In this document: positions 5,260 through 46,448 of the stretch, piece after piece
Numbering within the stretch: position 1 is the stretch's first letter
Layout of the letters: every line of letters begins with the position of its first letter
DNA from: an uncultured Gammaproteobacteria bacterium
GTDB lineage: Bacteria > Patescibacteriota > Patescibacteriia > Patescibacteriales > UBA12465
Direction: 5' to 3'
Length of the DNA stretch: 64,000 nt
Assembly: GCA_964406935.1 (NCBI GenBank)
Contig: CAYOTM010000001.1
Coordinates: 11,092-75,091 of the forward strand
Program-made: the position numbers and the translations under genes
The notes under the pieces: generated by a model
Databases searched by the model: none
What the model saw: the letters and a program-made list of their open reading frames with translations, nothing else
What the model was told of the DNA's origin: nothing

Positions 5260-5351
5260 ACTAGGATAAATTAGTTGACAATTAGGGATATTTAGCCTAA
5301 AATAAGAGGACGTTCAAAAATAATGTTCATTTTAAAAAAGGAGGTCTATGT

Positions 5352-5726
5352 ATGAAGAAAAGAAACAGGCGGTTGCAACCGCTAATTGAGGCGTTTGAGA
5401 ATAATCAAAGCGCAGATTTTATTGAAAAACTCAACCCCCAAGACGTAGGGAATTTATTAAATCTGATCGAGCTCCGGGAAAAAGAGCTCACCAGCCATTA
5501 CCACCTAATGAGGGGAAAAGTTCACCAAGAAATCAGCACTCAACATGTTCTTAAATCGGCTTTGGCAACGATTGCCGACATTGAGCTCGCTCAATTTGAG
5601 CAGTTAGCGGCCATCAGGCAACTGCTTGTTGTAAAAAAACAAGCAAACCAAGAAAGAAAACAAGAAAGAATCCTCATGTATGAGGAAAATCAGCAAACAC
5701 CGCTGAGAATGGCTGCCGGCGCCTAA
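5352..5726 (+). CDS. hypothetical protein, predicted coiled coil
   Basis: 124 aa, charged and Gln/Glu-rich. A terminator follows. Confidence 0.4.
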   Translation: MKKRNRRLQPLIEAFENNQSADFIEKLNPQDVGNLLNLIELREKELTSHYHLMRGKVHQEISTQHVLKSALATIADIELAQFEQLAAIRQLLVVKKQANQERKQERILMYEENQQTPLRMAAGA

Positions 5727-5753
5727 GCTAAGGCCCGTGCCCCAAAACAACCA

Positions 5754-5782
5754 GAAGGCTTCAAGCAATTGAAGCCTTTTTT
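5754..5782 (+). terminator. rho-independent terminator
   Basis: AAGGCTTCAA-gcaa-TTGAAGCCTT followed by TTTTTC. Confidence 0.6.
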
Positions 5783-5787
5783 TCATT

Positions 5788-15793: not shown

Positions 15794-16729
15794 ATGACAA
15801 ATATTTGGAAAACAATTTTCATGGGCACTCCCAAATTTGCTGAACCCAGCCTACAGGCCTTATTGGCGGCAAAAAATTTTCCAATTATTGGGGTGTTTAC
15901 TCAACCCGATAAGCCGGTAGGTCGCAAACAAATCATTACTCCCTCGGCAATTAAAGTTTTGGCACAAGCTCATAAAATACCGGTTTATCAGCCGGAAAAA
16001 ATTAAAACAGAGGTGGATATAATTAAAAGCCTCCAACCAGACCTAATTGTGGTAGTTGCTTATGGACAAATTATTCCTCAGGCAATTTTAGATATTCCCT
16101 CTTTAGGAATTATTAATGTTCACGCCTCCCTACTGCCTAAATATCGAGGAGCCGCTTGTTTAGCCGCACCAATTTTAAACGGTGACCTTGAAACTGGAAT
16201 AACCATTATGAAAATGGAAGCCACTTTAGATACAGGCCCCATCCTTAAACAAGCAAAAATTAAATTAACCGGGCAGGAATATTTAACTGAGTTGCATGAC
16301 AAGTTGGCAACTTTGGGAGCAGAAATCTTAATCCCAACATTAATTGATTATGCTCAAGGTAAAATTAAGCCCCAAGCCCAAGATGATAATCAGACTACTT
16401 ATGTTAAGCAAACTAACAAAGCGGAGGGAAAAATTGATTGGCAACAGTCAGCTAACCATATTGAACGACAAATCAGGGCTTATAACCCCTGGCCAGGAGC
16501 TTATTGCCAATTACCCAGCGGTCAAACTTTAAAGATTATTAAAGCTCAGGCACTTACTGGCCCAGACTCCACTGCTCCTGGAAAAATAAAAATTGACAAA
16601 GGAAGTCTTTTGGTTGGCACTGGACAGGGTAATTTACTTATATTAGAATTACAAGCGGCTGGTCAAAAAGTAATGTCGGCTTCAGAGTTTTTACGGGGCC
16701 ACAAGCTAGCTGATCAACAATTATTGTAA
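15794..16729 (+). CDS. fmt: methionyl-tRNA formyltransferase
   Basis: IIFMGTPKFAEPSL and INVHASLLPKYRGAA; adjacent to def. Confidence 0.9.
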   Translation: MTNIWKTIFMGTPKFAEPSLQALLAAKNFPIIGVFTQPDKPVGRKQIITPSAIKVLAQAHKIPVYQPEKIKTEVDIIKSLQPDLIVVVAYGQIIPQAILDIPSLGIINVHASLLPKYRGAACLAAPILNGDLETGITIMKMEATLDTGPILKQAKIKLTGQEYLTELHDKLATLGAEILIPTLIDYAQGKIKPQAQDDNQTTYVKQTNKAEGKIDWQQSANHIERQIRAYNPWPGAYCQLPSGQTLKIIKAQALTGPDSTAPGKIKIDKGSLLVGTGQGNLLILELQAAGQKVMSASEFLRGHKLADQQLL

Positions 16730-17243: not shown

Positions 17244-18521
17244 CTAAGATGATAACTGTTTTTGAGAAATAGTTAATAGTTGTCCGACTTTAATTTTTGA
17301 TTTTTCTTCAGCGGTAATTTTAAAAGATAAAGGAAAATAAAATTCACTCCGAGAACGAATCACACTTCCCTGAATATCTTCCACAATTACCGTAAATTGA
17401 GAAAACTTCTTAAATATTTGAGCCTGATATTTAGCTTCTAGATCTAAAGACAAACTTCTTAATTCAAGAGACCTGTCTTTTTTTATTTTAGCAGAAACTT
17501 GATTGACCAAACTAAAAGCCGGAGTTTTAGGATGGGCTGAGAAAGGAAAAACATGAACTTTGCTAAAAGCAATTTTCTTAGCCAATTGATAGGTTTTTTT
17601 AAAATCAGCCGCAGTTTCTCCGGGAAAGCCAACAATAATATCAGTACTTAGGGCAATCTCGGGCATTAATTGACGAATTTTTTTCACCCGATCTTGAAAA
17701 TATTTTACTGAATAAGGACGCTTCATCGCCTGTAAAATTTGGTCACTGCCTGATTGCAAGGAAATATGAAGATGGCGACACAAACGACCACGAGAACTGG
17801 CTATTAACTTTAACAACTGATCATCGACCTCATTAATTTCAATCGAACTTAAACGAAAACGAGCCCCAGGAACTTCCTTTAGTAATTGTTTAAGTAAACC
17901 AACTAAATTAACTTTTTTCTTGACTGATTTGAAGTCTTGTCCATAACGACCTAGGTGAATCCCACACAAAACAATTTCTTGCCAACCATTCTTAGAAGCC
18001 TCTTTAGCTTCTTTAATTATCTCTTGAGACAAGCGACTACTCAGCCTTCCCCGGGCATAAGGAATAATACAATAAGTACAAAATTGATTACAGCCATCAG
18101 CAATTTTTAAAAAATAACGAGCCTTATCATTCGATACTAAATCATATGACGAATTTAAACCCTTAACTGACCAAAGAGGACTTGATTTTTTCTTAGTTAA
18201 ATTTAATAAATGACGACTCAGGGAAATTAAATTGCCAGTTTCCCAAACCAGATCGACTGGCAATTTTTTAGCCTCCGGATAAGTAGCTGGCCAGCAACCA
18301 AAAATCGCTATCTTAGCTTGAGGATGTTTTTTTTGTAAAAATTTCCAGACCTGCCTATCCTTACGAATGGCTGTCTGAGTCACCGCGCAAGTATTAATAA
18401 TTAACCATTCAGGATTTACTTGATTTTCTTGCCAACCCCGTTTTAACAGTAATTTCTTTAAATAAGAAGAGTCGTATTGATTTACTTTGCAGCCTAAAGT
18501 TTTAATTAAAAATTGAGACAT
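17244..18521 (-). CDS. radical-SAM methylthiotransferase of the MiaB/RimO/MtaB family (second paralog; MtaB- or RimO-like)
   Basis: N-terminal MTTase domain (KTLGCKVNQYDS), radical-SAM CNQFCTYCIIPYARG, C-terminal TRAM-like region. Confidence 0.8.
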   Translation of the reverse strand: MSQFLIKTLGCKVNQYDSSYLKKLLLKRGWQENQVNPEWLIINTCAVTQTAIRKDRQVWKFLQKKHPQAKIAIFGCWPATYPEAKKLPVDLVWETGNLISLSRHLLNLTKKKSSPLWSVKGLNSSYDLVSNDKARYFLKIADGCNQFCTYCIIPYARGRLSSRLSQEIIKEAKEASKNGWQEIVLCGIHLGRYGQDFKSVKKKVNLVGLLKQLLKEVPGARFRLSSIEINEVDDQLLKLIASSRGRLCRHLHISLQSGSDQILQAMKRPYSVKYFQDRVKKIRQLMPEIALSTDIIVGFPGETAADFKKTYQLAKKIAFSKVHVFPFSAHPKTPAFSLVNQVSAKIKKDRSLELRSLSLDLEAKYQAQIFKKFSQFTVIVEDIQGSVIRSRSEFYFPLSFKITAEEKSKIKVGQLLTISQKQLSS

Positions 18522-29412: not shown

Positions 29413-30675
29413 TTATTCAGTAAAAATAATAGCGTTGGGCAAATTACGCCCTGGGCCAAGCATATATTCACCATTATAAATCATCGCCGATGAATAGCCA
29501 CCATCAATATTTAAAGCATATTCGAAACCTAAATGTTGAAGAATTCGTACTAAATCATCTAAGCTAGCAGTATTTACCGAAATTAAAGATAATTTACCCT
29601 GACCAGGATTCTGAGGATCATCTCGATAGGCAATTGCATTACGTCGCAACCGACTATTACGTTGACTAACATCAACCTCCCAATCAATTAAAGTATTAAA
29701 GGAATTTTCCAGTAAGCGCGGCTTATTTCCTATAGCCGCTTGCAGTTTTACCCCATACTGAGTTTCAAAGTTGGCCTGACTTTTAAAGTCACGGGAGTCT
29801 TTAAAATAATAAAAGCGATTATTTTCATCAAAGGCAATCAACGGGCCAGTTGTCCAATATTTTAACTGATCATCATTAATCATTAACTGCCGCTGACTAT
29901 CATAAACGGGGAAAAAATAATAGTTATTACCGCCGCAAGAACTGCCGGTACAAAAATAACTACCAGTAAAACCGGTGAAGGCATTATGGGAAAAAACATA
30001 ATCAGCTAAAGATTTGGCCGGGCAAGTTCCCAAACAAGGAATATCTCCGGCGGCTAAAGTTTTAATTTTTAAATTAGGATTACTTAAATCAATCTCAATA
30101 ATATCTAAAGAAAAAGTGCTTCCCTCGAGGGTTAATTTTTGATGCTGATAAGAACTATACTGGTTGATTGATTCACTTCCCCCTGGTTTATGAATTTGCG
30201 CTAAATTATGACGACTAATTCCCAAGCCAAGTTGGCGCATAATATTAAAGGCATCGGTTGGACGACCCAAATAATATTTTTTAAGGTTAAGCGGATTAAT
30301 ATACCAAGCCTCACCATTTTTTTCAACTTGTAAAATAATTCGACCAGACAATCTCCTAGCTAAATCTAAATTACCACTAACTGGCATTTCGGCTTGAGCG
30401 ATTTGCTGAAAATCACTTTCCGTAATCCCTAAGCCAAGTTGGCGCATAATATTAAAGGCATCGGTTGGACGACCCAAATAATAACGGCGTAAATCAACGG
30501 GATTAACATACCAGGCCTCACCGCTCTCCTCAACGCTCAACAAAATTCGCCCCGACAATGACTTGGCTAGTGCCTGCGCATCCTGGGGATAAACCAAAAA
30601 TAAACTAACTATAAAGAAAAAAAATAATAAATAATAAGGTTTTTTCATAAAAAATGGGCTAATTTGACTAATCAA
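29413..30675 (-). CDS. secreted protein: two N-terminal ~57-aa repeats plus C-terminal phosphodiester glycosidase (NAGPA/DUF2233-like) domain
   Basis: Signal peptide. Repeats GRILLSVEESGEAWYVNPVDLRRYYLGRPTDAFNIMRQLGLGI and GRIILQVEKNGEAWYINPLNLKKYYLGRPTDAFNIMRQLGLGI. C-terminus ALNIDGGYSSAM resembles the phosphodiester-glycosidase family. Confidence 0.55.
   Translation of the reverse strand: MISQISPFFMKKPYYLLFFFFIVSLFLVYPQDAQALAKSLSGRILLSVEESGEAWYVNPVDLRRYYLGRPTDAFNIMRQLGLGITESDFQQIAQAEMPVSGNLDLARRLSGRIILQVEKNGEAWYINPLNLKKYYLGRPTDAFNIMRQLGLGISRHNLAQIHKPGGSESINQYSSYQHQKLTLEGSTFSLDIIEIDLSNPNLKIKTLAAGDIPCLGTCPAKSLADYVFSHNAFTGFTGSYFCTGSSCGGNNYYFFPVYDSQRQLMINDDQLKYWTTGPLIAFDENNRFYYFKDSRDFKSQANFETQYGVKLQAAIGNKPRLLENSFNTLIDWEVDVSQRNSRLRRNAIAYRDDPQNPGQGKLSLISVNTASLDDLVRILQHLGFEYALNIDGGYSSAMIYNGEYMLGPGRNLPNAIIFTE
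30218..30540 (-). repeat. intragenic tandem duplication (two ~110-bp units about 208 bp apart, ~58 bp identical core)
   Basis: AAGCCAAGTTGGCGCATAATATTAAAGGCATCGGTTGGACGACCCAAATAATA occurs at about 30226 and 30434. Confidence 0.85.
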
Positions 30676-30839
30676 CCGATCTTAGTAATTATCTCTATTT
30701 TAACCTCTTTAGCTAAAAAAATCAAAAAAAATATTTATTGATCATTGTCAATATTTGCTAAACAGTCAGTATATACTAAAATAGAATAGATGGTTTAAAA
30801 AATAAAAATAAATTAATAATTTTTTAAATAAGCAAATTT

Positions 30840-31352
30840 ATGACTGAGGACAAAACGATTAAGGATAAAAATTACCAACGCCCCAGCTGGGATGAATATT
30901 TTATTAAAATTGCTGACATGGTTGGCTCCAGGGGAACTTGCGATCGTGGACGAGCTGGCTGTGTAATTACTAAACACAAAAGAATTATCTCTACCGGCTA
31001 TGTTGGTTCGCCAGTTGGCCTCCCTCATTGTGATCAAGTCGGTCATGAAATGCATACTGTTTTACAAGAAAATGGTGAGCAATCTCGTCATTGTATTCGG
31101 ACTACTCATGCCGAGCAAAATGCTATTTGCCAAGCAGCTCGCTTTGGGATGTCTCTTGAGGGCGGGACTCTTTATTGTAAAATGACTCCCTGTTATGTCT
31201 GTGCTAAAATGATTATTAACGCTGGCATTAAACGAGTAGTCTGCGCCCAAGACTATCACGGTGGTAGTCGCAGTAAAGAAATATTTAAAGAAGCCGGTGT
31301 AGAATTTACTCAACTGTCAGCCGAGATGACTACTTATCAAGATATGAAATAA
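30840..31352 (+). CDS. dCMP deaminase (ComEB/CMP-dCMP deaminase zinc-binding family)
   Basis: HAEQNAI...[21 protein letters not shown] (H-x-E / PC-x-x-C zinc site). Confidence 0.85.
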
Positions 31353-31383
31353 AAAAAATTTCTTAATTTTATTTTTTAAATTT

Positions 31384-32199
31384 ATGAAACAATATTTAGA
31401 TTTATTAGCCGATGTTTTACATAATGGGCAAGGCAAAGATGATCGAACTGGTACAGGCACAATTAGTGTTTTTGGCCGCCAAATTCGCTGTGATTTACAA
31501 GCTGGCTTTCCGCTTTTGACCACTAAAAAGGTTCACCTTAAATCAATTATTTACGAATTATTATGGTTTTTAAAAGGTGATACCAACATTAAATACCTAA
31601 ATGACCATGGCGTTAATATTTGGAATGAATGGGCCGATGAAAATGGTGATCTGGGACCAATTTACGGGAAACAATGGACTGCCTGGGAAGGTCCAAACGG
31701 TCTAAAAATCAACCAAATTGCCGACGCAGTTAATACCCTAAAAACCAATCCTAGCTCCCGTCGAATTATTGTTAGTGGCTGGAATGTGGCTGATTTAAAA
31801 CAATTAATTGCTGGTCAAAAAACCGCTCCCCCACCTTGTCATACAATTTTTCAATTTTATGTTGATACTAACGATCGCTTATCTTGCCAATTATATCAAC
31901 GGAGTGCTGATATTTTCTTGGGAGTCCCTTTTAATATTGCCTCTTACGCCCTCCTCACGATGATGATTGCCCAAGTAACTGGCAAAAAATTAGGGGAATT
32001 TGTTCACACTTTTGGTGATTTACATATTTATAACAATCACCTGGAGCAAGTTAAAGAACAATTGAGTCGACAACCAAAAGATTTGCCCCAAATGAAAATT
32101 AATCCAGCAGTGAAAGATATTTTTGCTTTTCAGTACGAAGATTTCACTTTAGAAAACTATAATCCCGAGCCGGCGATTAAGGCGCCGATCGCTATTTAA
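31384..32199 (+). CDS. thyA: thymidylate synthase (ThyA, folate-dependent)
   Basis: [31 protein letters not shown] and [11 protein letters not shown] (active-site Cys). Confidence 0.95.
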
Positions 32200-32203
32200 T
32201 AAT

Positions 32204-32707
32204 ATGATTCCGGTTACTTTAATGATGGCGATAACCAGTGATGGTTTTATTGCCAAACACCAAGCTCATTTAGCCAATTGGACCAGCAAGGAAGACAAAC
32301 AATTATTTGTCGAAATATCCAAACAACACGGCGTAATTCTAATGGGAGAAAATACTTTTAACACTTTTAAACGGCCGCTTCCGGATAGATTAAATGTGGT
32401 TTTTAGCCGCCAAGCCAATCCGCCAGTGATTGAAAATGTTAAGTGGGTCCAGGGCGACCCAGAAAAAGTATTAAATGAGTTAGAGAAGATGGGCTATCAG
32501 TCAGCTCTTTTAGGGGGCGGTGCTCAACTTAATTCCCTGTTTTTAGAAAAAAAATTAATTAAAGAAATGATCATTACCGTTGAACCTAAATTATTTGGTC
32601 AGGGCTTATCATTATTTGCAGCTGATACAGATTTTAATTTAAAACTAATTAACCTCAAAAAAATTAATGATGATGCTTTTATGATGCACTATCAAATAAT
32701 TTACTAA
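32204..32707 (+). CDS. dihydrofolate reductase-family protein (RibD_C-like fold)
   Basis: MAITSDGFIA...VILMGENTFNTF...LLGGGAQLNSLFL; located directly after thyA. Confidence 0.55.
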   Translation: MIPVTLMMAITSDGFIAKHQAHLANWTSKEDKQLFVEISKQHGVILMGENTFNTFKRPLPDRLNVVFSRQANPPVIENVKWVQGDPEKVLNELEKMGYQSALLGGGAQLNSLFLEKKLIKEMIITVEPKLFGQGLSLFAADTDFNLKLINLKKINDDAFMMHYQIIY

Positions 32708-33270
32708 TGTCTATGAAAAAAATAATCTTTGGCTTAATTAGTGAAATGGCCGGCGGTAAAGATACTGCTAAAAAATATTTGGAAAAAAATTACCAAGCTG
32801 AGAGTTGTCGCTTTTCCTCAATTATGCGAGATATTTTGGATCGTCTTTACTTAGAACAAAGTCGTGTTAATATCCAACGTTTATCAACTAGTTTGCGTCA
32901 AACTTATGGTGAAGATATTTTAGCTAGAACCATTGCGTCTGAGGTCAATAACTTGCGAGCAAATTTGGTGGTGGTTGATGGCGTTAGACGACCAGCCGAC
33001 ATTAAATACTTAAGTGAGTTAAATAATTTTTATTTAGTAGCAATTAAAACCAGCCCCGAATTAAGATACCAAAGACTCGTTAAGCGAGCAGAAAATCCTG
33101 GTGACGCTGATAAAACTTGGGAAGGATTCTTAGCTGACCACAAAACTGAGGCTGATAAAGAAATTGCTAGCCTAATGACTAAGGCAAATTACTTTTTGGA
33201 TAATAATGGTAATTTAGCCGCTCTGTATTTACAAATTGACAAACTGATAAAAGAAGTGCAAAATAATTAA
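32707..33270 (+). CDS. deoxynucleoside monophosphate kinase (phage T4 gp1-like dNMP kinase family)
   Basis: P-loop GLISEMAGGKDT (GKDT, as T4 gp1 SGKDTT) and downstream VVVDGVRRP (D-x-R motif). Confidence 0.5.
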   Translation: MSMKKIIFGLISEMAGGKDTAKKYLEKNYQAESCRFSSIMRDILDRLYLEQSRVNIQRLSTSLRQTYGEDILARTIASEVNNLRANLVVVDGVRRPADIKYLSELNNFYLVAIKTSPELRYQRLVKRAENPGDADKTWEGFLADHKTEADKEIASLMTKANYFLDNNGNLAALYLQIDKLIKEVQNN

Positions 33271-33287
33271 CAAGAAAGTTAAATCAG

Positions 33288-33322
33288 GAGGAGCACAGTG
33301 ATCTAAATCACTGGCTCCTTTT
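33288..33322 (+). terminator. strong stem-loop plus T-run between the dNMP kinase and tmk-dut
   Basis: GGAGCACAGTGAT-ctaa-ATCACTGGCTCC (12 bp with 1 bulge) followed by TTTTAAT. Confidence 0.5.
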
Positions 33323-33335
33323 AATATCTAGGCTT

Positions 33336-34679
33336 ATGACTAATAATTTGGGGAAATTAATTGTGATTGACGGCACTGATGGCGCTGGTAAAACTACCCA
33401 GCTAAAATTATTGCGAGAAACTTTAGAGTACCAAGGCTACCAAATAGAGGAGGCTGATTTTCCCCAATATAATACCAAATCAGCTGGCTTGGTTGAAGAA
33501 TATTTGTCTGGTAAATATGGCGACTCAAAAAGTGTAACCGCCTATCAGGCTGCGATTTTTTATGCAGCTGATCGCTATGACGCTAGCTTTCAAATTAGAC
33601 AATGGCTAAAGGAAGGTAAAATTGTTTTATCTAATCGTTATGTTTCTTCGAGTCTAGGCCATCAAGGAGGAAAAATTGATAATCCCCTAGAGCGTCGTTT
33701 ATTTTTTAATTGGCTATATGATTTAGAATACAAAATTTTTAATCTCCCGCGACCCGATTTATCTTTAATTCTTTATTTAGAGCCAGAAATTGCTCAACAA
33801 TTAGCCAAAGAAAGACAGCGAGAAGACTGGAAAGGAAAAACTAAAGATATTCACGAAGACGATCTCAATCATTTGAAAAAGGCCGCTCAAATTTTCTTAG
33901 AAGTAGCCGACACTTTTCCCGACTTTCGCCTAATTCGTTGTAGTCACCACGGACAAATTTTAAGTCGCAGTGATATCCACTATTTAGTTGGCTTACAAGT
34001 AGCCAAAATTTTAAATGGTCAAAAAACAGTAGCTAAAAATAATTGGCAAGCAGTCGGTAATATCTTAATCAATAACAATGGCATGGTAAATTACGACAGT
34101 AAAATAATTGCTGTTAAAAAAAACATTGAAAATATTAATGCTCCCACAATTAATTCAACCCTTGACTTGGAAGAAGTGATCAAACAATCAAATGAGGAAC
34201 AAATTATTGAAAAACCGACCGACCAAACTATTAACCCCTCGTCAGAAAATAATTCTTTATCTTTAAAATTTGAAAAAATAGTCCCCCAAGCTAAAACGCC
34301 TGAGCGGGCTCATCCTGGTGATGCCGGTCTGGATTTATTTGCAAGTGATAATTATTCCATCCCTCCTTATGGACAGGCCTTAATTCAAACTGGCCTTAAA
34401 TTAGCAATTCCTTCGGGCTACGTTGGTCTAATTTGGGATAAAAGCGGACTCGCTAGCCAAGGTTATACTACAATGGGCGGTGTAATTGATGAAAATTATC
34501 GAGGAGAAATTAAAGTAATCTTTAAAAATTTAAGTGAAGATATTGTTAATATTCAAGCTGGCCAAAAAATTGCGCAACTCCTCATTCAAAAAGTTGAAAT
34601 CCCTGATATTATTGAAGAAAAAGTCGAAATTAATAGCCCACGAGGGGATCAAGGATTCGGCAGCAGTGGCCAATTTTAA
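33336..34679 (+). CDS. tmk-dut: bifunctional fusion protein: thymidylate kinase (about aa 1-215) plus dUTP diphosphatase (about aa 300-447)
   Basis: Tmk: LIVIDGTDGAGKTTQ, DRY, LSNRYVSSSLGHQ. An ~80-aa Asn/Ser-rich linker. Dut: AHPGDAGLDL, GLIWDKSGLASQG, IDENYRGEIKVIF, PRGDQGFGSSG. Confidence 0.85.
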   Translation: MTNNLGKLIVIDGTDGAGKTTQLKLLRETLEYQGYQIEEADFPQYNTKSAGLVEEYLSGKYGDSKSVTAYQAAIFYAADRYDASFQIRQWLKEGKIVLSNRYVSSSLGHQGGKIDNPLERRLFFNWLYDLEYKIFNLPRPDLSLILYLEPEIAQQLAKERQREDWKGKTKDIHEDDLNHLKKAAQIFLEVADTFPDFRLIRCSHHGQILSRSDIHYLVGLQVAKILNGQKTVAKNNWQAVGNILINNNGMVNYDSKIIAVKKNIENINAPTINSTLDLEEVIKQSNEEQIIEKPTDQTINPSSENNSLSLKFEKIVPQAKTPERAHPGDAGLDLFASDNYSIPPYGQALIQTGLKLAIPSGYVGLIWDKSGLASQGYTTMGGVIDENYRGEIKVIFKNLSEDIVNIQAGQKIAQLLIQKVEIPDIIEEKVEINSPRGDQGFGSSGQF

Positions 34680-34705
34680 AAGAGCTCTGAGCTAGCTCTT
34701 TTTTA
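34677..34705 (+). terminator. rho-independent terminator
   Basis: AGAGCT-ctgagct-AGCTCT followed by TTTTTT. Confidence 0.6.
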
Positions 34706-34758
34706 ATAATTAAGAACCGGCCTTCCAAGAAAGAGGTTTTTCCGTTAAAATAGAAGAT

Positions 34759-36267
34759 ATGAAGTATGATATTATTATCGGCCTAGAAATTCACGCCGAA
34801 CTCAATACTAAAAGCAAAATGTTTTGTGCCTGCTTAAATGACAGTGAACAAACAATTCCCAATTCTAATGTTTGTCCAATTTGCTTAGGTCACCCGGGAA
34901 CTTTGCCAGTGCCCAATAAACAAGCCATCGACTGGACTATTTTAGTAGGCATTGCTTTAAACTGCACGGTTAATCGTGATTCAAAATTTGATCGCAAAAA
35001 TTATTTTTACCCCGATCTCCCCAAAGGTTATCAAATATCTCAATATGATGAACCTTTAGCCTATAATGGTTATTTAGAAATTGATGAAGAAAAAATTCCG
35101 ATTACGCGCATTCATTTAGAGGAAGATACTGGTAAATCTTTTCACGCTAAAGATGGTGGGCAAACATTAATTGATTTTAATCGAGCCGGCACCCCTCTTT
35201 TAGAAATGGTTAGCCAACCAGTAATTAAAGATGCAAAGCAAGCTAAAAAATTCTGTCAAAGTTTTCAAAAAATCTTACGTTATTTAGAAGTAAGTCAAGC
35301 TGATATGGAAAAAGGAGAAATGCGCTGTGAAGCTAATATTAGTTTACAATTTCCAGGAAAATGGCAATTAGAAAATGGCATTATTGAGCCTTTAGGAAAA
35401 TCTGAGCTCAATCCTAAGGTTGAAGTTAAAAATATTAATTCTTTTCGAGCCCTAGAAAAAGCGATAAATTATGAAATTAAACGGCAGACCCAAAAATTAG
35501 ATAAGCAAGAAGAAATAATTGCGGAAACTAGGGGTTGGAATGAACAACTTGGAGAAACAGTAGCTCAACGTCGCAAAGAAAGCGCGGCTGACTATCGCTA
35601 TTTCCCTGAACCAGATATTCCTCCTTTAAAAATTAGCCAGGAACAAATTGAACAAATAAAAAATATGCTAGTTGAATTACCAGACACTAAAAAAAAGCGT
35701 TTTATGCGCCAATATGGCCTGCGAGAAGACAGCGCTGAGATTTTAGTTAGCGATAAATATTTAGCTGACTTTACAGAAAAAACCATATCAGAATTAGGAG
35801 CTTGGGTGACGGCTGAAGGCGATAATTTTGAACGTCAAGATCAAAAATTAGCCCAAGTAACCGCTAACTGGCTGAGTGGCGAACTACTCAAACATTTAAA
35901 TAATGAGGGTAAAAAAGCGAAGGACATTATTATTACTCCGGAAAATTTTGCCGAACTAGTATGTCTCGTTTGGCAGGGAAAAATTAATTCTAATACTGGA
36001 CAAAGAATTTTAGAAATTATGTATAAGGAAGGTGGGGACCCAACTGATATCATGGAGCAGTTAGGCTTAGAACAAATTGATAATAATGAGGAATTAAATA
36101 AAATAATTGAACAAGTTATTCGTGAAAACAACAAACAAGTAACCGCCTATAAACAAGGCAAGACACCGATTATTCAATTTTTAATCGGCAAAGCAATGGC
36201 CGCTACTCGAGGAAAAGCTAACCCAACAATTGTTAAAAAATTATTAGAAGAGCGCTTACAGAAATAA
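34759..36267 (+). CDS. gatB: Asp-tRNA(Asn)/Glu-tRNA(Gln) amidotransferase subunit B
   Basis: MKYDIIIGLEIHAELNTKSKMFC; 502 aa. Confidence 0.9.
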   Translation: MKYDIIIGLEIHAELNTKSKMFCACLNDSEQTIPNSNVCPICLGHPGTLPVPNKQAIDWTILVGIALNCTVNRDSKFDRKNYFYPDLPKGYQISQYDEPLAYNGYLEIDEEKIPITRIHLEEDTGKSFHAKDGGQTLIDFNRAGTPLLEMVSQPVIKDAKQAKKFCQSFQKILRYLEVSQADMEKGEMRCEANISLQFPGKWQLENGIIEPLGKSELNPKVEVKNINSFRALEKAINYEIKRQTQKLDKQEEIIAETRGWNEQLGETVAQRRKESAADYRYFPEPDIPPLKISQEQIEQIKNMLVELPDTKKKRFMRQYGLREDSAEILVSDKYLADFTEKTISELGAWVTAEGDNFERQDQKLAQVTANWLSGELLKHLNNEGKKAKDIIITPENFAELVCLVWQGKINSNTGQRILEIMYKEGGDPTDIMEQLGLEQIDNNEELNKIIEQVIRENNKQVTAYKQGKTPIIQFLIGKAMAATRGKANPTIVKKLLEERLQK

Positions 36268-36304
36268 AAATTATTAACGCTAGTAATTTAAATATTTTTT
36301 GATT

Positions 36305-36337
36305 TAAAAAAAACCGATGTCTAAACATCGGTTTTTT
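36305..36337 (+). terminator. terminator after gatB (overlaps the miaA stop codon)
   Basis: ACCGATGT-ctaa-ACATCGGT followed by TTTTTG. Confidence 0.6.
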
Positions 36338-37313
36338 GAAAATCTTTAATCAGCTGACGAGCCTCAGAATAATTATTTACCCAATAAATTTTTTGACCTT
36401 GTTTTTGCCAACGCTTAAACCAAGTTTTCTGACGTTTGGCAAAACGATAAATAGCAGTCGTTAATTTTTCCACCATTTCCGGATAAGTCATTGACCCTTG
36501 CAAATAATAACTAACAAATCGATATTCCAGGCCAAAAGAAATTAACCGCTTAAAAGAAATTCCCTGCTGCTGAAGGCGTTTTACCTCCTCTATGAGTCCT
36601 TCTTTAGACAAACGTGTTTCCAGGCGCTGGCTAATTCTTTTTCTTAAAACTTCATCGGGCGCCTCTAGACCTAAAACTAAAAAATCATACGGCAAAGTTG
36701 TTGACTGTTTTTTAAATAAACCACCAGATTCAATAATTTCTAAATAACGAACTAGACGACGATGATTGTGGCGATCACTATTATTTAATTTTTTAGCAAA
36801 ACTCGGTTTAAGTTCAAGCAGTTTTTCTAAAAGCTCCTGACTACTTAAACTTTCAAGCTCACGACGACGCTGAAGATTGGGTTTAGCCGAGCTTAACTTA
36901 TAATTATTAACCACGGCCTGCAAATAAAGACCGGTGCCTCCGACCAGTAGAGGCAATTTATCGTTTTCGATAATCTTATCTAAGGACTTAAAAGCTAATT
37001 TTTGATAACGAGCTAAATTAAATTTTGTTTTTGGCGAAACAATATCAATCAAATGATAGGGCACTTTATTTTTACCTTGTCCGTATTCAGCTAAGTCCTT
37101 ACCACTGCCAATATCCATCCCGCGATAGACCTGGCGACTATCAGCCGAGATAATTTCACCAGCAAACTGCCGAGCTAGTTTTACGGCCAATGCGGTTTTT
37201 CCACTAGAGGTTGAACCTAAAATAACCACTACTAATTTTGGTCGAAAACCAGCTGATTTAACTACTTTTTCCCCTTGATTTAACCGACTGATTTTTCCTC
37301 TTGACTTTTTCAT
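36321..37313 (-). CDS. miaA: tRNA dimethylallyltransferase
   Basis: VVILGSTSSGKTALAVKLARQF, ADSRQVYRGMDIGSGK. Confidence 0.9.
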   Translation of the reverse strand: MKKSRGKISRLNQGEKVVKSAGFRPKLVVVILGSTSSGKTALAVKLARQFAGEIISADSRQVYRGMDIGSGKDLAEYGQGKNKVPYHLIDIVSPKTKFNLARYQKLAFKSLDKIIENDKLPLLVGGTGLYLQAVVNNYKLSSAKPNLQRRRELESLSSQELLEKLLELKPSFAKKLNNSDRHNHRRLVRYLEIIESGGLFKKQSTTLPYDFLVLGLEAPDEVLRKRISQRLETRLSKEGLIEEVKRLQQQGISFKRLISFGLEYRFVSYYLQGSMTYPEMVEKLTTAIYRFAKRQKTWFKRWQKQGQKIYWVNNYSEARQLIKDFQKTDV

Positions 37314-37373: not shown

Positions 37374-38696
37374 TCATAATGATGAGGTTTTTTTCTTTTC
37401 TAATAACTCCCCGCTGAGAATGAACTCTTTAACCTGAGTAATTTTTACTTCTACAAATTGGCCAATTAAGTTGGCTGATTTTTTAACTACTAGCGAATTA
37501 ATGATCACTGTTTTAAAACTAGAACTTTTTCCATAATATTGACCCTGTTTATTCTTAGCTTCAACTAGAATCTTAATCGTCTTCCCTAAATATCGCTGAT
37601 TATTTTTAAGGGCACTATTTCTCAAAATCGCCTCTAAAACCTGTTCGCGTCGTTTTTTTTCTAAACGATTAACATTATCCTTTAATTTCCAAGCGGCTGT
37701 TCCCGGACGAGGGCTGAATTGAGAAATATAAGCCATATCAAACTCTAATTCCTGAAAAATTTTTACTGTTTTTAAAAATTGAGACTTTGTTTCTCCGGGA
37801 AAACCAACAATCACATCAGTGGTGATAGCGATGCCTGGTTTAGCGCGACGAATTTTTTTAATTAAAGTTATAAAATCCTGGGCTGTATACTGACGATTCA
37901 TATTCGCTAAAACTTGATTATCTCCCGCCTGAAGCGCTAAGTGTAAATGATGACAAACCTTATCAGAATAGGCCATCACTTTAATTAAAGCCGGGCTCAA
38001 GTCTTTAGGATGACTAGAGCTAAAACGCAGCCAAAAATCTCCCGGAATCGCAATTAAATCTTGTAATAACTGAGGAAAATTTACTTGATCACTTTTATAG
38101 CTATTAACATTTTGAGCAATTAAATTAATTTCCCGATAACCCTGTTTAATTAATTTTTTAACCTCTTCAATAATCTCTTTAGCTGGACGATAAACTTCTG
38201 GACCACGAGCATAAGGCACCACACAATAAGCGCAAAAATTATTACAACCATTGCCAATCGGCACAAAAGCGCTAAAACTATTATTATGCTTGGGTTTAAT
38301 TTTTAAATATTTTTCTCCCTTAAGACGACTCTTAAGTTGTTGGTCAATATTAATAGCGGCTAGCTTAGTAGTTAATAAATTAAACAGATTAGGTAATTGG
38401 CTAATTGGTAAAAATAAAGTTACACGACCAGCTAAGCGACGCTGTACATCTAATCGATTAGCTAAGCAACCAGTAATAATTAAACGACCATTTTTATTTT
38501 TCTTTCTAATTTGATTAACCAAACCATACACCCGATCCTCAGCTGACTGCCGAATACCACAAGTGGTTAAAATCACCAAATCCGCTCGCTGATATTCCTG
38601 ACTAACAGTATATCCCCGAGCTTCTAAAAAAGCGGCTACCCGCTCACTATCAGCCTTATTCATTTGACAACCGATAGTAATAATATGATAAGTCAT
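37374..38696 (-). CDS. miaB: tRNA-2-methylthio-N6-dimethylallyladenosine synthase
   Basis: MTTase N-domain (TIGCQMNKADSE), radical SAM CNNFCAYCVVPYARG, TRAM domain; sits upstream of miaA. Confidence 0.85.
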   Translation of the reverse strand: MTYHIITIGCQMNKADSERVAAFLEARGYTVSQEYQRADLVILTTCGIRQSAEDRVYGLVNQIRKKNKNGRLIITGCLANRLDVQRRLAGRVTLFLPISQLPNLFNLLTTKLAAINIDQQLKSRLKGEKYLKIKPKHNNSFSAFVPIGNGCNNFCAYCVVPYARGPEVYRPAKEIIEEVKKLIKQGYREINLIAQNVNSYKSDQVNFPQLLQDLIAIPGDFWLRFSSSHPKDLSPALIKVMAYSDKVCHHLHLALQAGDNQVLANMNRQYTAQDFITLIKKIRRAKPGIAITTDVIVGFPGETKSQFLKTVKIFQELEFDMAYISQFSPRPGTAAWKLKDNVNRLEKKRREQVLEAILRNSALKNNQRYLGKTIKILVEAKNKQGQYYGKSSSFKTVIINSLVVKKSANLIGQFVEVKITQVKEFILSGELLEKKKTSSL

Positions 38697-38702
38697 AAAA
38701 TA

Positions 38703-40487
38703 TTAATTAAGGTCTTCGTTTGGCTCAACGGTGACAGGAATCAAGCGATAAAGACCGAAGCGTCCCTGACGTAATATTAACTCAATATTAAAGCCGGCCG
38801 TTGGTAAACGTCGTTCATTTAAATAATTAAGATCAGTCTCAGGAAAAGCAAAATTATAATAATAAACCGGATAATTATGCATAATCTTCCCTAGAGATTG
38901 ATTGGTCGTTTCATGATTTAAAAGGGCCACCACTACTCGTCTTTCCGGAAATAATTGTTTATCATGATATTGAGTAACAATAATTGACCCGTCTTCGGTG
39001 GCTGCTAAAACTCGCTGAATATTATCTTTGTCCTGAAAATGATTATAATAAAGATGAGCTAAACCTTCCTCTGAACCAAAAAAGACAAACAATAAAGAAT
39101 TAAAAACTAAGGCCATGACCACTAATAATTGGAGGCCATTGCTTAAAAAAATTCTCGCTCGATCATAACGACCCAGTAAACTGGGGCGACCGAAACTACC
39201 CGATAACAAGCGAGATAAACTGAAAATTGCTAAAGAAGCCAGCGGAATCGCTAATAAATAAATGGGCAACCAATAACGAGTATAGGAATTGCCAATTGTA
39301 TAACGACTAGGGTCAGGATTATCAAAAAATTGCCAACTACCATAATAAATAACTAAAATACAGGCCAAGGTGAACCAGCTGAGCAAATAAACCAAGCGCC
39401 AACGGCTTACCTTGCGCCACCAACCAATTAAAAAGGTAATTATGCCTAGAGCAGTGGCTAAGGATAAATAAGGAAACATTACTAAAAAATAATAATAAAA
39501 CATTTTTAGCGACTGGATTGGTTGATAGCCAAAATAAAAAATATTATCCCGTAAAACTGTCCAAAATTGATCTAATTTTTCAAATTTGCCAAATAAGGCG
39601 GAGCTGACAAAAGTGCTCCCTGCTTGAGAAATTTGCTGTAAAGAAGTGTTCATTTCTGAGTAACCACCAAACAGAGGAAAATCATAAAGTAATTGATTAA
39701 AATAAGCAACTGGTAAAAAAGCGAACCCGGCACCAGCTAAAATTAAAAAAATTCTTAAACCCAGGCGACGAGCATAAAATAACCAAGCGAGAAAAAGAGT
39801 TGGTCCTAGCCAAATAATTTCTGAGGTGCGCGTAGCCACCGCTCCACCCAAAGCTAAACCAGCTAAAAATGGCCATAAAAATCCCAACCAAGTATTCGCC
39901 CTCAACCTAAGTTTAAAGAATTTTTCTTTTAGGGAATATTTAGATTGTAAACTTAATTGCAAAAAATAAGCGACGATAATTAAAAAAACAAGGAATAAAA
40001 CATTATGAAATAAACTGCGAACACTATAATAAATATAAACCGGAAAAGAAGCTAAGAGGGCGGCACTAATAACACCAATTCGTTGATTAAATAAATTTCT
40101 TACAAATAAATAAAAAAAGATAATACCGAGAGCGGCTAAGAATGGGGTAAAATAAGGAATGGCTGCTGTTCCCAGCCAACTAGCTAACTCTCCATAAAAA
40201 ACAATAATTCCTAAAAAACTAACTGGTTTCAGCCAACCATGATCACTGCGCATACTCCGGGGACGAACTACTTCTTCGGCAATCAAATTAGCCGGCTCAA
40301 AAACTGCTAGCGTTTGATTACTAGTATAATTTTTAATAAAAAAATAATTAGCCGTCTCATCAGGTGACGACCACTTAACATAATCTTCTTGATGGACCAA
40401 ATAATTAAAGCCAGCCGTAACAATAAAAAATAGACAAGCAATTAGAATAACCGTAATAATTGGCCAATTTTTCTTAAAAAATTGCAT
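38703..40487 (-). CDS. polytopic membrane protein, possible GT-C-fold (ArnT/PMT-like) glycosyltransferase
   Basis: 594 aa with about 12 TM helices and an extracytoplasmic C-terminal domain. No definitive motif. Confidence 0.4.
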   Translation of the reverse strand: MQFFKKNWPIITVILIACLFFIVTAGFNYLVHQEDYVKWSSPDETANYFFIKNYTSNQTLAVFEPANLIAEEVVRPRSMRSDHGWLKPVSFLGIIVFYGELASWLGTAAIPYFTPFLAALGIIFFYLFVRNLFNQRIGVISAALLASFPVYIYYSVRSLFHNVLFLVFLIIVAYFLQLSLQSKYSLKEKFFKLRLRANTWLGFLWPFLAGLALGGAVATRTSEIIWLGPTLFLAWLFYARRLGLRIFLILAGAGFAFLPVAYFNQLLYDFPLFGGYSEMNTSLQQISQAGSTFVSSALFGKFEKLDQFWTVLRDNIFYFGYQPIQSLKMFYYYFLVMFPYLSLATALGIITFLIGWWRKVSRWRLVYLLSWFTLACILVIYYGSWQFFDNPDPSRYTIGNSYTRYWLPIYLLAIPLASLAIFSLSRLLSGSFGRPSLLGRYDRARIFLSNGLQLLVVMALVFNSLLFVFFGSEEGLAHLYYNHFQDKDNIQRVLAATEDGSIIVTQYHDKQLFPERRVVVALLNHETTNQSLGKIMHNYPVYYYNFAFPETDLNYLNERRLPTAGFNIELILRQGRFGLYRLIPVTVEPNEDLN

Positions 40488-40572: not shown

Positions 40573-42507
40573 ATGCTTAGATTAACAAAAAAAATTCAAT
40601 CTGACCAGCTGTGGCTATTTTTATGCTGGTTTATTATTAGCGCTAGTTTAATTTATTTTTTTGATCGCCTAAATACGATTAATTTAATTTTAGCTCTGAT
40701 TATTAGTGGGGCTGGTTTAAAATTATTAAATCATTATCAACAAAAACCAACCATTCAGGAACAGGAAATACTTCCCCAGCAAGAAGTCTTGTCCGCTAAC
40801 TATCCCCATATAATTAAGAATATTTTTTTATTAATTTCTCTTAGTGCTTTAGTCGTCGCGATAATAATTTTAAATCAAGCAGCCAGTCAAGAAGCCTTAA
40901 TTTCTCCTTGGGAAGTAATCCCCAACACCTTTTTTTATTATTTTATTATCAGCGCCTGGTCGCTCCTAATTTGGTTATCTCAAAAAGAGACATCAACTAA
41001 ACTGGCAAGGGTTATGATTAGTCTTTTTTATTTTTTATGCTTAGGAGTTGCCCTAGTTATTTATCAAATCGGCTACGGCTTTGACCCATTTATTCATCAA
41101 GCCGCCAGCCAACACATTGCTGACTGGGGTTTTATTACTCCTAAAAATCCCTACTATATTGGTCAGTACAGCTTAATCTTATTAATAAATAAATTATTTG
41201 GCGGATCAATCGCTATCTTAAATAAATTTTTAGTGCCGGGGCTAGCTGCTATTATTTTACCTTGGATTACTCGCAAATGGTTGTTAAGTAATGCTAATGA
41301 CATAATATCTTCAAAGGCCATTCCCCTAACTATAATTTTAAGTTTAATCATTGGTTTTAGCCCCTTTATTGTCACCACTCCCCAAAATTTAGCCTATTTA
41401 TTTTTATTGGTAACGATTATTTTTGGTCTAAATGAGAGAACTTTAAAACTTAGTTTACTATCGGGTCTAGCAACTTTATTTATTCATCCCCTAGCTGGTA
41501 TTCCGGCTATTTTATTTATTATTTTAATACTAGGCAAAAAATATCTAAAAACTAAAAGGTTGTTGAGTGTTTGGTGGCCCTATTTAGTAGCTATTTTAAG
41601 TATTCCAATAATTCCCTTGGTTTTAAGTTGGGGGAGCGGCGCCCGCTGGCAATTTAATTTTAATGCTTGGCAAATAGTCGGTTTAAATTTTCAAAATCAA
41701 GAAAACTGGTTATTAAATATTTTATATTTCTGGGAAAAAAATTATTGGTATTTATTAATTATTCTGATTATTTTAGCTATTAGATTAATTTATCGAAAAA
41801 CAATTTGGCGCCAAGTAAAGGATTCTCTATTAATGGCGGCAGCAATGCTAGGAACAATGTTAATTAGTAAATTATTAGTTTTTAAAGATTTAATTTTCTA
41901 TGAACAAGGTGATTATACTAGCCGCCTACTAATCATTGCCCTAATTTTCACTTGGCCAGCCCTTAGTTTATTATTTTTAGAGGTGGCCAAAAAAATTCGC
42001 CAACAAGAAATGATTATTAAACTATTAATTTTACTAGCCACTAGTTTATTGCTGGCAACTAGTCTATATTTATCCTATCCTCGCCTGGATAATTATCACA
42101 ATTCTCGTGGCTATTCCTTAAGCGCTAGTGATTTAATAGCTGTTCAAACAATTGCTGACTTAACCAATAATGATTATATTGTGCTCGCCAATCAACAAGT
42201 ATCAGTCGCCGCCTTAAGCAAATTTGGTTTTAATAATTATTTTTCTAACCCCCAGGGAGAAATCTATTTTTATTCTATTCCCACTGGCGGTCCTTTATAT
42301 CAATATTATTTACGAATGGTTTATGAGGAAGCTAGTCGCAAAACCATGCTCCAAGCAATGGATTTAGTAGGGGTAGATGAAGCTTTCTTGGTAATTAATA
42401 AATATTGGTGGGCCAGTGATAAAATAATTAATGAGGCGAAAATTAGTAGTCACCGCTGGTGGAGTATTAATCAGGGAGATATTATAATATTTCAATATTT
42501 AAGATAA
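40573..42507 (+). CDS. large polytopic membrane protein, unknown function
   Basis: 644 aa with 14 or more TM helices and a C-terminal soluble domain; divergent from the 38703 gene. Confidence 0.4.
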   Translation: MLRLTKKIQSDQLWLFLCWFIISASLIYFFDRLNTINLILALIISGAGLKLLNHYQQKPTIQEQEILPQQEVLSANYPHIIKNIFLLISLSALVVAIIILNQAASQEALISPWEVIPNTFFYYFIISAWSLLIWLSQKETSTKLARVMISLFYFLCLGVALVIYQIGYGFDPFIHQAASQHIADWGFITPKNPYYIGQYSLILLINKLFGGSIAILNKFLVPGLAAIILPWITRKWLLSNANDIISSKAIPLTIILSLIIGFSPFIVTTPQNLAYLFLLVTIIFGLNERTLKLSLLSGLATLFIHPLAGIPAILFIILILGKKYLKTKRLLSVWWPYLVAILSIPIIPLVLSWGSGARWQFNFNAWQIVGLNFQNQENWLLNILYFWEKNYWYLLIILIILAIRLIYRKTIWRQVKDSLLMAAAMLGTMLISKLLVFKDLIFYEQGDYTSRLLIIALIFTWPALSLLFLEVAKKIRQQEMIIKLLILLATSLLLATSLYLSYPRLDNYHNSRGYSLSASDLIAVQTIADLTNNDYIVLANQQVSVAALSKFGFNNYFSNPQGEIYFYSIPTGGPLYQYYLRMVYEEASRKTMLQAMDLVGVDEAFLVINKYWWASDKIINEAKISSHRWWSINQGDIIIFQYLR

Positions 42508-45977: not shown

Positions 45978-46448
45978 TTATTTTTTATTTTTTTTAGCCC
46001 TCATCTCAGCTGCCTTAGCAATCATTGCGGAGCTAGCCCGAATTTTTTTACCTAAACCGTCAACCATTTTAATCCCGTGTTTTTGACAAACAATATATTC
46101 AGGGACATCATTAAGACTTTTGCGGTCACCGCCATTAGCAAAAATGTCTGGCTTAACTTTTGCTAAAGATTTACCAACACTGGGATCACGATCAATTGAA
46201 ATAAAAACTTCATCAACATCTCGCAAGGCAGCTACGATTTTTGCTCGATCCTGAAGAGTCATAAAAGGAACGCTCCCTTTTAGTTTCACTTGATAATCAT
46301 TATTAATAATCGCAATTAAATAATCTCCTAATTTTTTTGCCTTACTAATCATTTCTAAGTGGCCAACATGTAAGGGGTTAAAATAACCAGAGACAACCAC
46401 TCTGGTAAGCTTCTTTTTTGATTTGACTAATTTCTTACTTTTTACCAT
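45978..46448 (-). CDS. cytidylyltransferase-like nucleotidyltransferase (TagD/RfaE-domain-II-like)
   Basis: GYFNPLHVGH (the H-x-G-H motif) and ISIDRDPSV; 156 aa. Confidence 0.6.
   Translation of the reverse strand: MVKSKKLVKSKKKLTRVVVSGYFNPLHVGHLEMISKAKKLGDYLIAIINNDYQVKLKGSVPFMTLQDRAKIVAALRDVDEVFISIDRDPSVGKSLAKVKPDIFANGGDRKSLNDVPEYIVCQKHGIKMVDGLGKKIRASSAMIAKAAEMRAKKNKK

Follow-up and report, generated by a model that had tools for sequence, protein, structure and literature searches.

Introduction

In Gram-positive bacteria and eukaryotes, the dCMP-deaminase route to dTTP runs through ComEB or DCTD, ThyA, dihydrofolate reductase (DHFR), Tmk and Dut, and bacteriophage T4 covers the same activities around dUMP, dTMP and dTDP with cd, td, frd, gene 1 and gene 56. 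Here we describe a cluster with the same enzymes and the same logic in a 64,000-nucleotide (nt) stretch of DNA, hereafter the window, taken from contig CAYOTM010000001.1 (assembly GCA_964406935.1), which is deposited as an uncultured Gammaproteobacteria bacterium and placed by GTDB in the Patescibacteriota. Five consecutive genes encode a dCMP deaminase, a ThyA, a DHFR, a P-loop kinase and a fusion of Tmk with a dUTPase. The locus differs from the Gram-positive and eukaryotic route by its clustering of all genes, its fusion of Tmk with Dut, its Thermotoga-type DHFR and an extra kinase within the cluster. It differs from the T4 set in that its enzymes, except the kinase, are universal cellular enzymes, carried in one chromosomal block apparently inherited within the Patescibacteria. 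Also, the dUTPase fused to Tmk in the window is of the trimeric type, and the dCTPase/dUTPase gp56 of T4 has a different fold.

Other described systems resemble parts of the cluster. DcdV consists of a P-loop kinase fused to a deoxycytidylate deaminase, and the kinase and the deaminase of the window are homologous to these two domains. In DcdV-type enzymes, mutation of either the kinase or the deaminase domain abolishes the depletion of dC nucleotides (bioRxiv 10.1101/2021.03.31.437871; bioRxiv 10.1101/2021.04.26.441389). The two functions are genomically coupled both in DcdV and in the cluster, but the genes of the cluster are separate, with the deaminase preceding the kinase where they are adjacent, the deaminase resembles the ordinary ComEB type, and the neighbors are housekeeping genes and not a defence island. 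Fusions of tmk and dut have been described in three baculoviruses (pelu112, erel005 and op031), where they are active in vivo (PMC4895240). In them, a thymidylate kinase at the N-terminus is joined to a trimeric-type dUTPase at the C-terminus, the order also seen in the window; insect viruses acquired these fusions independently, and the likeness is one of architecture and not of compared sequences. By contrast, a long, variable linker separates the two domains in the Patescibacteria, where the fusion is widespread. Given the documented baculovirus genes, this fusion is unusual but has a precedent. Finally, the closest solved relative of the kinase is the archaeal SSO1041 (UPF0200/PRK08356), an "adenylate kinase-related protein bound to AMP" of the same length. 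Both proteins have DGVR and RY.R...R motifs, but their identity is only about 22% and invariants of the kinase family such as R41 are not shared by SSO1041.

We found no published description of this cluster in the Candidate Phyla Radiation (CPR), Parcubacteria or Patescibacteria in the literature on thymidylate, dUTPase and dCMP deaminase. The absence of de novo nucleotide synthesis has been written of for the phylum Patescibacteria (PMC12455944). We propose, with a probability that we put at about 0.7, that the locus is a pyrimidine deoxynucleotide cluster of housekeeping character, passed on by vertical inheritance and typical of the Patescibacteria (CPR), and that its kinase would be a (deoxy)nucleoside monophosphate ((d)NMP) kinase.

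Enzymes of the cluster

The list of open reading frames (ORFs) of the window contains the five consecutive same-strand ORFs that a preliminary description, made from the letters alone, had pointed out (Table 1), and our profile scans bear out the dUMP-to-dTDP enzyme set and the pathway logic that it had proposed. The spacers between the ORFs measure, in order, 31, 4, -1 and 65 nt, the -1 nt spacing at the DHFR/kinase junction corresponding to a TAATG overlap.

Table 1. Features of the cluster and its flanks in the window, with amino acid identities to syntenic Patescibacteria homologs and to the best phage match (phage comparison covering the kinase, the deaminase and ThyA).
Feature	Position	Strand	Basis	Identity to syntenic homologs	Best phage match
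dCMP (deoxycytidylate) deaminase, 170 amino acids (aa)	30840..31352	+	PF00383, TIGR02571, phrog_174; HAE and PCxxC zinc motifs	70-78%	48%
Thymidylate synthase ThyA, 271 aa	31384..32199	+	PF00303, NF002497; catalytic PPCH cysteine	78-84%	68% (unannotated faecal "Bacteriophage sp." contigs)
Thermotoga maritima-type DHFR (DHFR/RibD_C superfamily), 167 aa	32204..32707	+	PF00186, PF01872, PDB 1cz3	60-70%	
P-loop kinase, 187 aa (probable start 32713, 185 aa)	32707..33270	+	Profile, fold, synteny	53-70%	26%
Hairpin and U-run, kinase/tmk-dut spacer	33286..33323	+	Folding versus shuffles; relatives		
Tmk-dUTPase fusion, 447 aa	33336..34679	+	PF02223, PF00692, TIGR00576	Tmk 63-74%; dUTPase 57-75%	
gatB, housekeeping, downstream anchor of the cluster	34759..36267	+	PF02934 and PF02637	64-68%	
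miaA, housekeeping, convergent, closes the syntenic block	36321..37313	-	PF01715, 202 bits	55-62%	

The dCMP deaminase scored 82 bits against PF00383 (cut-off 25) and matched phrog_174 with an E-value of 2.5e-46; its match to the ComEB model TIGR02571 covered the full length at 122 bits, below the cut-off of 219. ThyA reached 403 bits against PF00303 and 452.6 bits against NF002497 (cut-off 327). The DHFR-family protein passed the cut-offs of both PF00186 (52.8 bits, cut-off 25) and PF01872 RibD_C (68.5 bits), and its best solved match, nearly over the full length, was the experimentally known DHFR of Thermotoga maritima (1cz3, E 3.6e-24). A second folate-dependent enzyme, the methionyl-tRNA formyltransferase Fmt, is encoded elsewhere in the window (15794-16729, +), which fits a need for DHFR.

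In the fused protein, the Tmk domain spans residues 11-192 (about nt 33366-33911), with 84 bits against PF02223 (cut-off 27) and 81.0 bits against TIGR00041 (cut-off 83.25); its P-loop (DGTDGAGKT) and DRY motifs are kept across 120 homologs. The dUTPase domain, of trimeric type, spans residues 319-445 (about nt 34290-34670) and scored 113 bits against PF00692, 124.3 bits against TIGR00576 (cut-off 102.55) and 112.9 bits against NF001862 (cut-off 103). The segments AGLD, GVID..YRGE and RG..GFGSSG resemble dUTPase motifs 1, 3 and 5, and lysines (DKSG, QKIAQ) stand where motifs 2 and 4 of E. coli Dut have arginines. Conservation is good in both halves and poor in the linker of about 80 aa between them (residues about 225-305). 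More than 120 full-length fused homologs of 405-482 aa were found at 55-63% identity, those with a taxon name being Patescibacteria or "bacterium" metagenome-assembled genomes (MAGs). Tmk-dUTPase fusions are common in the phylum.

Based on family membership, dUMP would be supplied both by the dCMP deaminase from dCMP and by the dUTPase domain from dUTP. ThyA would then methylate dUMP to dTMP, oxidizing methylene-tetrahydrofolate to dihydrofolate, the Thermotoga-type DHFR would regenerate tetrahydrofolate, and the Tmk domain would produce dTDP. In such a scheme, the fusion would tie the clearance of dUTP physically to the phosphorylation of thymidylate.

Conservation and origin of the cluster

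Gene order was compared over 80 species-level loci, all from uncultured MAG or single-amplified genome records, which were retrieved by a profile scan of genome contigs with a 13-sequence kinase alignment and labeled ORF by ORF with phmmer. The informatively named loci belong to Patescibacteria lineages, and some bear other taxon labels. Tmk was present in 60 of the 80 loci, dCMP deaminase in 59, GatB in 54 (each time after the cluster), ThyA in 43, MiaA in 40 (in the same position as in the window), DHFR in 34 (usually directly 3' of ThyA where the gene order was listed) and dUTPase in 32, with Tmk-dUTPase fusions in 17. The order dCMP deaminase-ThyA-DHFR-kinase, as in the window, occurred in 11 loci, most of which continue with Tmk/dUTPase, gatB and a miaA on the minus strand. 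Wherever at least 4 kb was available on both sides (54 loci), a deaminase, a ThyA or a Tmk was found within 4 kb and on the same strand as the kinase (54/54). An upstream flank made of NAGPA and yggU is common to several related loci. One Moranbacteria genome has a dCTP deaminase of the dUTPase superfamily in place of both the zinc deaminase and Dut, and keeps the series ThyA-DHFR-kinase-Tmk-GatB-MiaA. Named homologs of the kinase, of the Tmk-dUTPase and of ThyA came from Parcubacteria, Falkowbacteria, Moranbacteria and Paceibacteria, and proteins 100% identical to those of the window were found on NCBI and Logan contigs.

Among the loci retrieved together with their flanks, L003 (a JGI 3300027784 contig) has the kinase closest to that of the window (70% identical) and no dCMP deaminase at this position, NAGPA being directly followed by ThyA. 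As the more distant loci L005, L013 and L015 do have a deaminase, this gene is a gained or lost element of the block. Also, many "binchicken" third-party annotation (TPA) MAG records (L005, L008, L010, L022, L023, L029 and others) bear titles of uncultured Gammaproteobacteria, Bdellovibrionales or Saccharibacteria. The Patescibacteria-specific cassette is present in these records with a kinase identity of 45-59% and the same gatB/miaA flanks, and their taxon labels are probably placeholders or errors.

The preliminary description had seen in this gene set a horizontally acquired, or at least phage-like, cassette for dNTP supply mirroring the T4 genes. The lack of de novo nucleotide synthesis that it also supposed for the organism agrees with accounts of the phylum (PMC12455944). 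T4 does encode the same activities, the kinase matches phrog_139, the family that holds T4 gp1, and its structural neighbors include many viral proteins annotated as deoxynucleoside monophosphate (dNMP) kinases; also, a transfer of thyA into Patescibacteria has been reported (PMC12455944) and the deaminase gene has a slightly high GC content (z 2.3). However, the block and both of its flanks are collinear in many species-level Patescibacteria genomes, and all five proteins are closest to their syntenic homologs, with far lower identities to the best phage proteins for the three that were compared (Table 1). The best 120 matches of ThyA in a collection of 5.8 billion proteins were 78-85% identical, and the named ones among them were Patescibacteria, except one MAG labeled Clostridia. 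An IMG/VR scan returned a single distant viral relative of the kinase, at 28% identity.

The cassette also diverges together with its flank. Pairwise identities of each cassette protein were all positively correlated with those of GatB, with Spearman rho of 0.28-0.74 over all pairs and of 0.46-0.90 for the window versus the loci, MiaA as a control giving 0.80 and 0.87, respectively. The codon usage of the cassette genes was indistinguishable from that of the neighboring genes (log-likelihood z-scores from -1.3 to +0.25), the GC content along the window is flat (0.32-0.40), and the profile-scanned parts of the window contain only genes that are housekeeping or unassigned, neither mobility genes nor genes for phage structural proteins being seen there. 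Synteny, identities, co-divergence and composition thus speak against horizontal acquisition, and we consider a phage-derived or otherwise horizontally acquired cassette extremely improbable. The preliminary description had itself named a grouping of the kinase with cellular kinases, together with vertical, lineage-typical descent of all five genes, as the outcome that would speak against transfer, and judged in this way the idea fails; the comparison of GC and codon usage that it had suggested reveals a cassette that is not unusual with respect to its flanking genes, the GC of the deaminase gene alone being slightly raised.

The viral relative mentioned above lies on a phage contig (L004, IMGVR_UViG_3300026488_000022, 4977-7339), where a 595-aa ThyX-like ORF with an inserted HNH/intein-like segment is directly followed by a 191-aa gp1-style kinase with a GKDT P-loop and a PDLR motif, the sole IMG/VR relative found.

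The P-loop kinase and its family

The second ATG of the kinase ORF, used by gene callers and by most homologs, is its probable start. In a family alignment of 34 sequences, with identities down to 42%, the invariant residues are G17, K18, S37, R41, R53, R64, G92, R94, R95, R120, R123, R127 and N130. The preliminary description had assigned the protein to the T4 gp1 family based on a GGKDT P-loop and a D-x-R motif. GGKDT is indeed present at residues 16-20, although only G17 and K18 are invariant across the family, in which the P-loop varies between GKD, GKG, GKE and GKS. The supposed D-x-R site, on the other hand, reads VDGVRR, and the profile alignment sets it opposite the DGyPR of adenylate kinase 1 (AK1, 3adk); the hhalign alignment with T4 gp1 takes in just 36 N-terminal columns (probability 74%) and does not reach its D-T-R.

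At E-value limits of 1e-3, 1e-10 and 1e-30, the family comprises 9490, 3927 and 444 cluster representatives (clusters at 50% identity), respectively. The kinase is a member of a large, uncharacterised, Patescibacteria-wide family, and the earlier statement that gp1-like kinases are rare in cellular genomes does not hold with 444 such clusters in the strictest class. In Patescibacteria MAGs, proteins of this family are currently labeled "AAA family ATPase" or "dephospho-CoA kinase". A second paralog was searched for within the window and none was found. Two or three paralogs surround the deaminase in 8 of 82 loci (the 80 loci of the scan and others), namely L021, L030, L039, L045, L062, L076, L079 and L082, typically in the order kinase-dCMP deaminase-kinase(-kinase), which suggests that the copies have diverged in substrate. 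Two representative proteins of 379-395 aa (P0210 and P0247) look like tandem kinase-kinase fusions.

Profile comparisons placed SSO1041 (3lw7/3h0k) first among the solved relatives of the family (E 1.8e-23, full length), followed by dephospho-CoA kinase (CoaE; E about 1e-5, P-loop or C-terminus only), AK1 (E 1.9e-4, full length), phosphomevalonate kinase (E 3.6e-4) and T4 gp1 (1dek, E 2.8e-3), the latter only over residues 5-40 in the P-loop region. In the AK1 alignment, three sites correspond: R41 to the arginine of LLR, DGvRR to DGyPR, and RxxRxxxR to the RLLKR of the LID. Together they make up the arginine set of nucleoside monophosphate (NMP) kinases, from the NMP site and the LID. The AlphaFold2 (AF2) model of the kinase, whose fold is adenylate-kinase-like, has a predicted local distance difference test (pLDDT) of 92, and its best PDB folds in Foldseek were SSO1041 (TM-score 0.72-0.82), then adenylate kinases, UMP/CMP kinases and CoaE; 1dek was not among the top 50 PDB matches. 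Many of the neighbors among viral models are annotated as deoxynucleotide monophosphate kinases (query-normalised TM-score 0.6-0.83).

Matches of similar strength were obtained with three families. The kinase scored 62.9 bits (E 3.2e-17, full length) against the UPF0200 model PRK08356 of NCBIfam, below the cut-off of 189 bits, and is on this basis a homolog and not a member of UPF0200. Against phrog_139 it scored 58.4 bits (E 1.5e-15), residues 1-185 aligning with profile positions 79-264; T4 gp1 falls into this family with an E-value of 1.8e-65 (the gp1 sequence used was 100% identical to X03016.1). Against the kinase half of the anti-phage dCTP deaminase model PDLC02373 of PADLOC it scored 61.9 bits (E 1.3e-17), with E 4.9e-11 for NF041025. 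By these scores, the kinase is about equally distant from UPF0200, phrog_139 and the kinase half of DcdV. No match at E<=0.01 was found between the kinase and the DNMK family PF21448 (gathering score 27.1 bits), and some of its homologs reach 27-36 bits, mostly over their first ~50-65 residues only. Thus, the kinship with T4 gp1 stands at the level of the superfamily, through phrog_139 and the viral fold neighbors, but the nearest solved relative is SSO1041 and the alignment with gp1 itself is restricted to the P-loop. As UPF0200 has no known function, the link to this family names no activity. Nothing was found on UPF0200 or SSO1041 in a full-text literature search.

Function of the kinase

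The kinase is most likely an ATP-dependent enzyme that phosphorylates (d)NMPs, with deoxypyrimidine or more general dNMP substrates. We judge this function the likeliest from the dTMP-pathway context, the kinase-deaminase fusion in DcdV, the crystal structure of SSO1041 with AMP (3lw7) and the arginines of NMP kinases. The most frequent immediate neighbor of the kinase is the dCMP deaminase (upstream in 41 of the 80 loci, downstream in 8), followed by DHFR and Tmk. Encoded next to Tmk, the enzyme may serve the dTMP pathway, the likeliest reaction being the interconversion of dCMP and dCDP or another dNMP phosphorylation. In working beside a dCMP deaminase, it would be comparable with the dNMP kinases of phages and with the DcdV kinase domain.

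Homologs of the kinase carry the label CoaE at JGI and in some NCBI records; in this reading, the protein would merely be located among nucleotide genes. Weak matches to this family do exist at the P-loop and the C-terminus only (TIGR00152, 19.4 bits; PDB 2grj and 2if2, E about 1e-5). However, the TIGR00152 score is far from the cut-off of 65.55, the window protein has no PF01121 match, the full-length matches are instead SSO1041, adenylate kinase and phrog_139, and the genomic context is always the dTMP pathway. A cytidylyltransferase-like gene of the window (45978-46448), considered as a possible CoaD that would have favored a CoaE role, is RfaE-domain-II-like or generic and not CoaD. We regard a CoaE function as very unlikely.

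The pairing with the deaminase also evokes a split DcdV-type anti-phage dCTP deaminase, in which both genes would serve defence rather than metabolism. The kinase and the deaminase each match one half of the PADLOC dCTPase model (E 1.3e-17 and 2.3e-25, respectively) and of NF041025, the genes are directly adjacent, deaminase first, in about half of the genomes (the 41 loci above), and both domains are essential in the fused enzymes. In the window, however, they are separate genes with ThyA and DHFR between them, and NF041025 gives 42 and 75 bits versus a cut-off of 400. The deaminase matches the housekeeping ComEB model over its full length but the defence model over the catalytic core only. 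Across the sampled genomes, the pair is near-universal and stands with ThyA, DHFR, Tmk and gatB, not in defence islands, and the kinase is kept without the deaminase in several of them. A defensive role appears to us highly improbable.

Another nucleotide-related role is somewhat less improbable than these two, but still unlikely: the protein could be a deoxynucleoside kinase (dN to dNMP), could stand in for nucleoside diphosphate kinase by converting dTDP to dTTP, or could be a regulator that binds nucleotides without catalysis. Some homologs give faint matches to the deoxynucleoside kinase family (dNK, PF01712), the kinase directly precedes Tmk in many loci and the cluster has no gene for the dTDP-to-dTTP step that comes after Tmk, and the role of the kinase domain in DcdV is itself undefined. 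On the other side, the pattern of arginines and the alignment over the full length look like those of NMP kinases, SSO1041 was crystallized with AMP, and the invariant Walker A lysine and LID arginines of the family argue for catalysis.

Several observations weigh against a housekeeping, vertically inherited cluster with a (d)NMP kinase. The all-pairs correlations with GatB are moderate for the deaminase, ThyA and DHFR (rho 0.28-0.38), and ThyA falls into several length classes across the phylum (264-360 aa); together, these data leave room for replacement within the phylum without pointing to phage. The reported thyA transfer would agree with such replacement. The slightly raised GC of the deaminase gene, mentioned above, is a further point. 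The kinase is kept in loci without the zinc deaminase (L003, L036 and L037), and in L001 it stands with a dUTPase-superfamily dCTP deaminase instead; it is thus neither a strict partner nor a mere subunit of the deaminase. Also, no biochemical data were found in the literature for the kinase family or for UPF0200.

Hairpin between the kinase and tmk-dut genes

The 65-nt spacer between the kinase and tmk-dut genes (33271-33335) contains a 16-bp hairpin with one bulge and a CUAA loop, followed by UUUU. Its minimum free energy is -22.1 kcal/mol (z -4.9), and none of 200 shuffled sequences folded as well. The 5' arm, AGGAGGAGC, is Shine-Dalgarno-like. A hairpin with a T-run, made of different stems, occurs at the same junction in relatives that have the fused gene, in L005, L008, L010-L013, L015, L016, L019, L020 and L045, and the 5' arm in these relatives is often AGGAGGAG. 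L003 and L041 have no hairpin there and present AGGAGG 8 nt before the ATG.

The simplest reading is a terminator or attenuator, which would probably split or attenuate transcription ahead of tmk-dut and gatB; a regulator that sequesters the Shine-Dalgarno sequence is also possible. Two other explanations were discarded. The AGGAGG hairpin is not the general terminator style of this genome, as only 1 of the 18 AGGAGG sites in the window lies in such a hairpin, and a mini-ORF (GTG ATC TAA) that the AGGAGG could serve is not conserved in relatives. No credible Rfam match was found at the hairpin. A scan of positions 30400-36600 with promoter and terminator consensus sequences gave counts no higher than shuffled sequences, and we therefore make no claim about promoters.

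Other features of the window

The other genes of the window include those for DnaB, RecR, MurA, GroEL, the F-type ATP synthase, DnaK/DnaJ, two ClpB-like proteins, Fmt, MiaA, MiaB and glycosyltransferases. An Rfam scan of the window returned three tRNAs and no other family. In a 524-aa ORF (3685-5259, -), an MraY/WecA-like Glycos_transf_4 domain at residues 83-243 occurs together with a complete QueH epoxyqueuosine reductase domain at residues 349-522, an odd pairing that could reflect two genes merged by the ORF caller. Two MiaB-like radical-SAM methylthiotransferases are encoded at 17244-18521 (-) and 37374-38696 (-), one with and one without a TRAM domain. Pfam gave no match at E<=1e-5 for four sizeable ORFs of 269-644 aa (38703-40487, -; 40573-42507, +; 11802-13292, +; 314-1123, -), one of which shows a weak STT3-like oligosaccharyltransferase match.

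Biological meaning

The main value of these data is corrective: a T4-like list of enzymes in a reduced genome can be the lineage's own thymidylate cluster. The novelty is limited to the membership of the kinase in an uncharacterised family with informative relatives, and the cluster is otherwise ordinary. Genomic context ties this large family to deoxypyrimidine metabolism, and the family is homologous to UPF0200, which has a solved structure, and to the essential, unexplained kinase domain of DcdV. We tentatively raise the further idea, which we hold to be rather doubtful at present, that the 185-190-aa kinase founds, on the cellular side, a so far unrecognised Patescibacteria-wide family of dNMP kinases sharing ancestry with phage dNMP kinases, UPF0200 and the DcdV kinase domain. 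If this were true, the enzyme would let host-dependent bacteria directly phosphorylate deoxynucleotides scavenged from host DNA, and its characterization would provide the first activity for UPF0200 as well as a reason for the dependence of DcdV on its kinase domain. Thousands of proteins could thus gain an annotation from one enzyme assay, which could also shed light on nucleotide salvage in the CPR.

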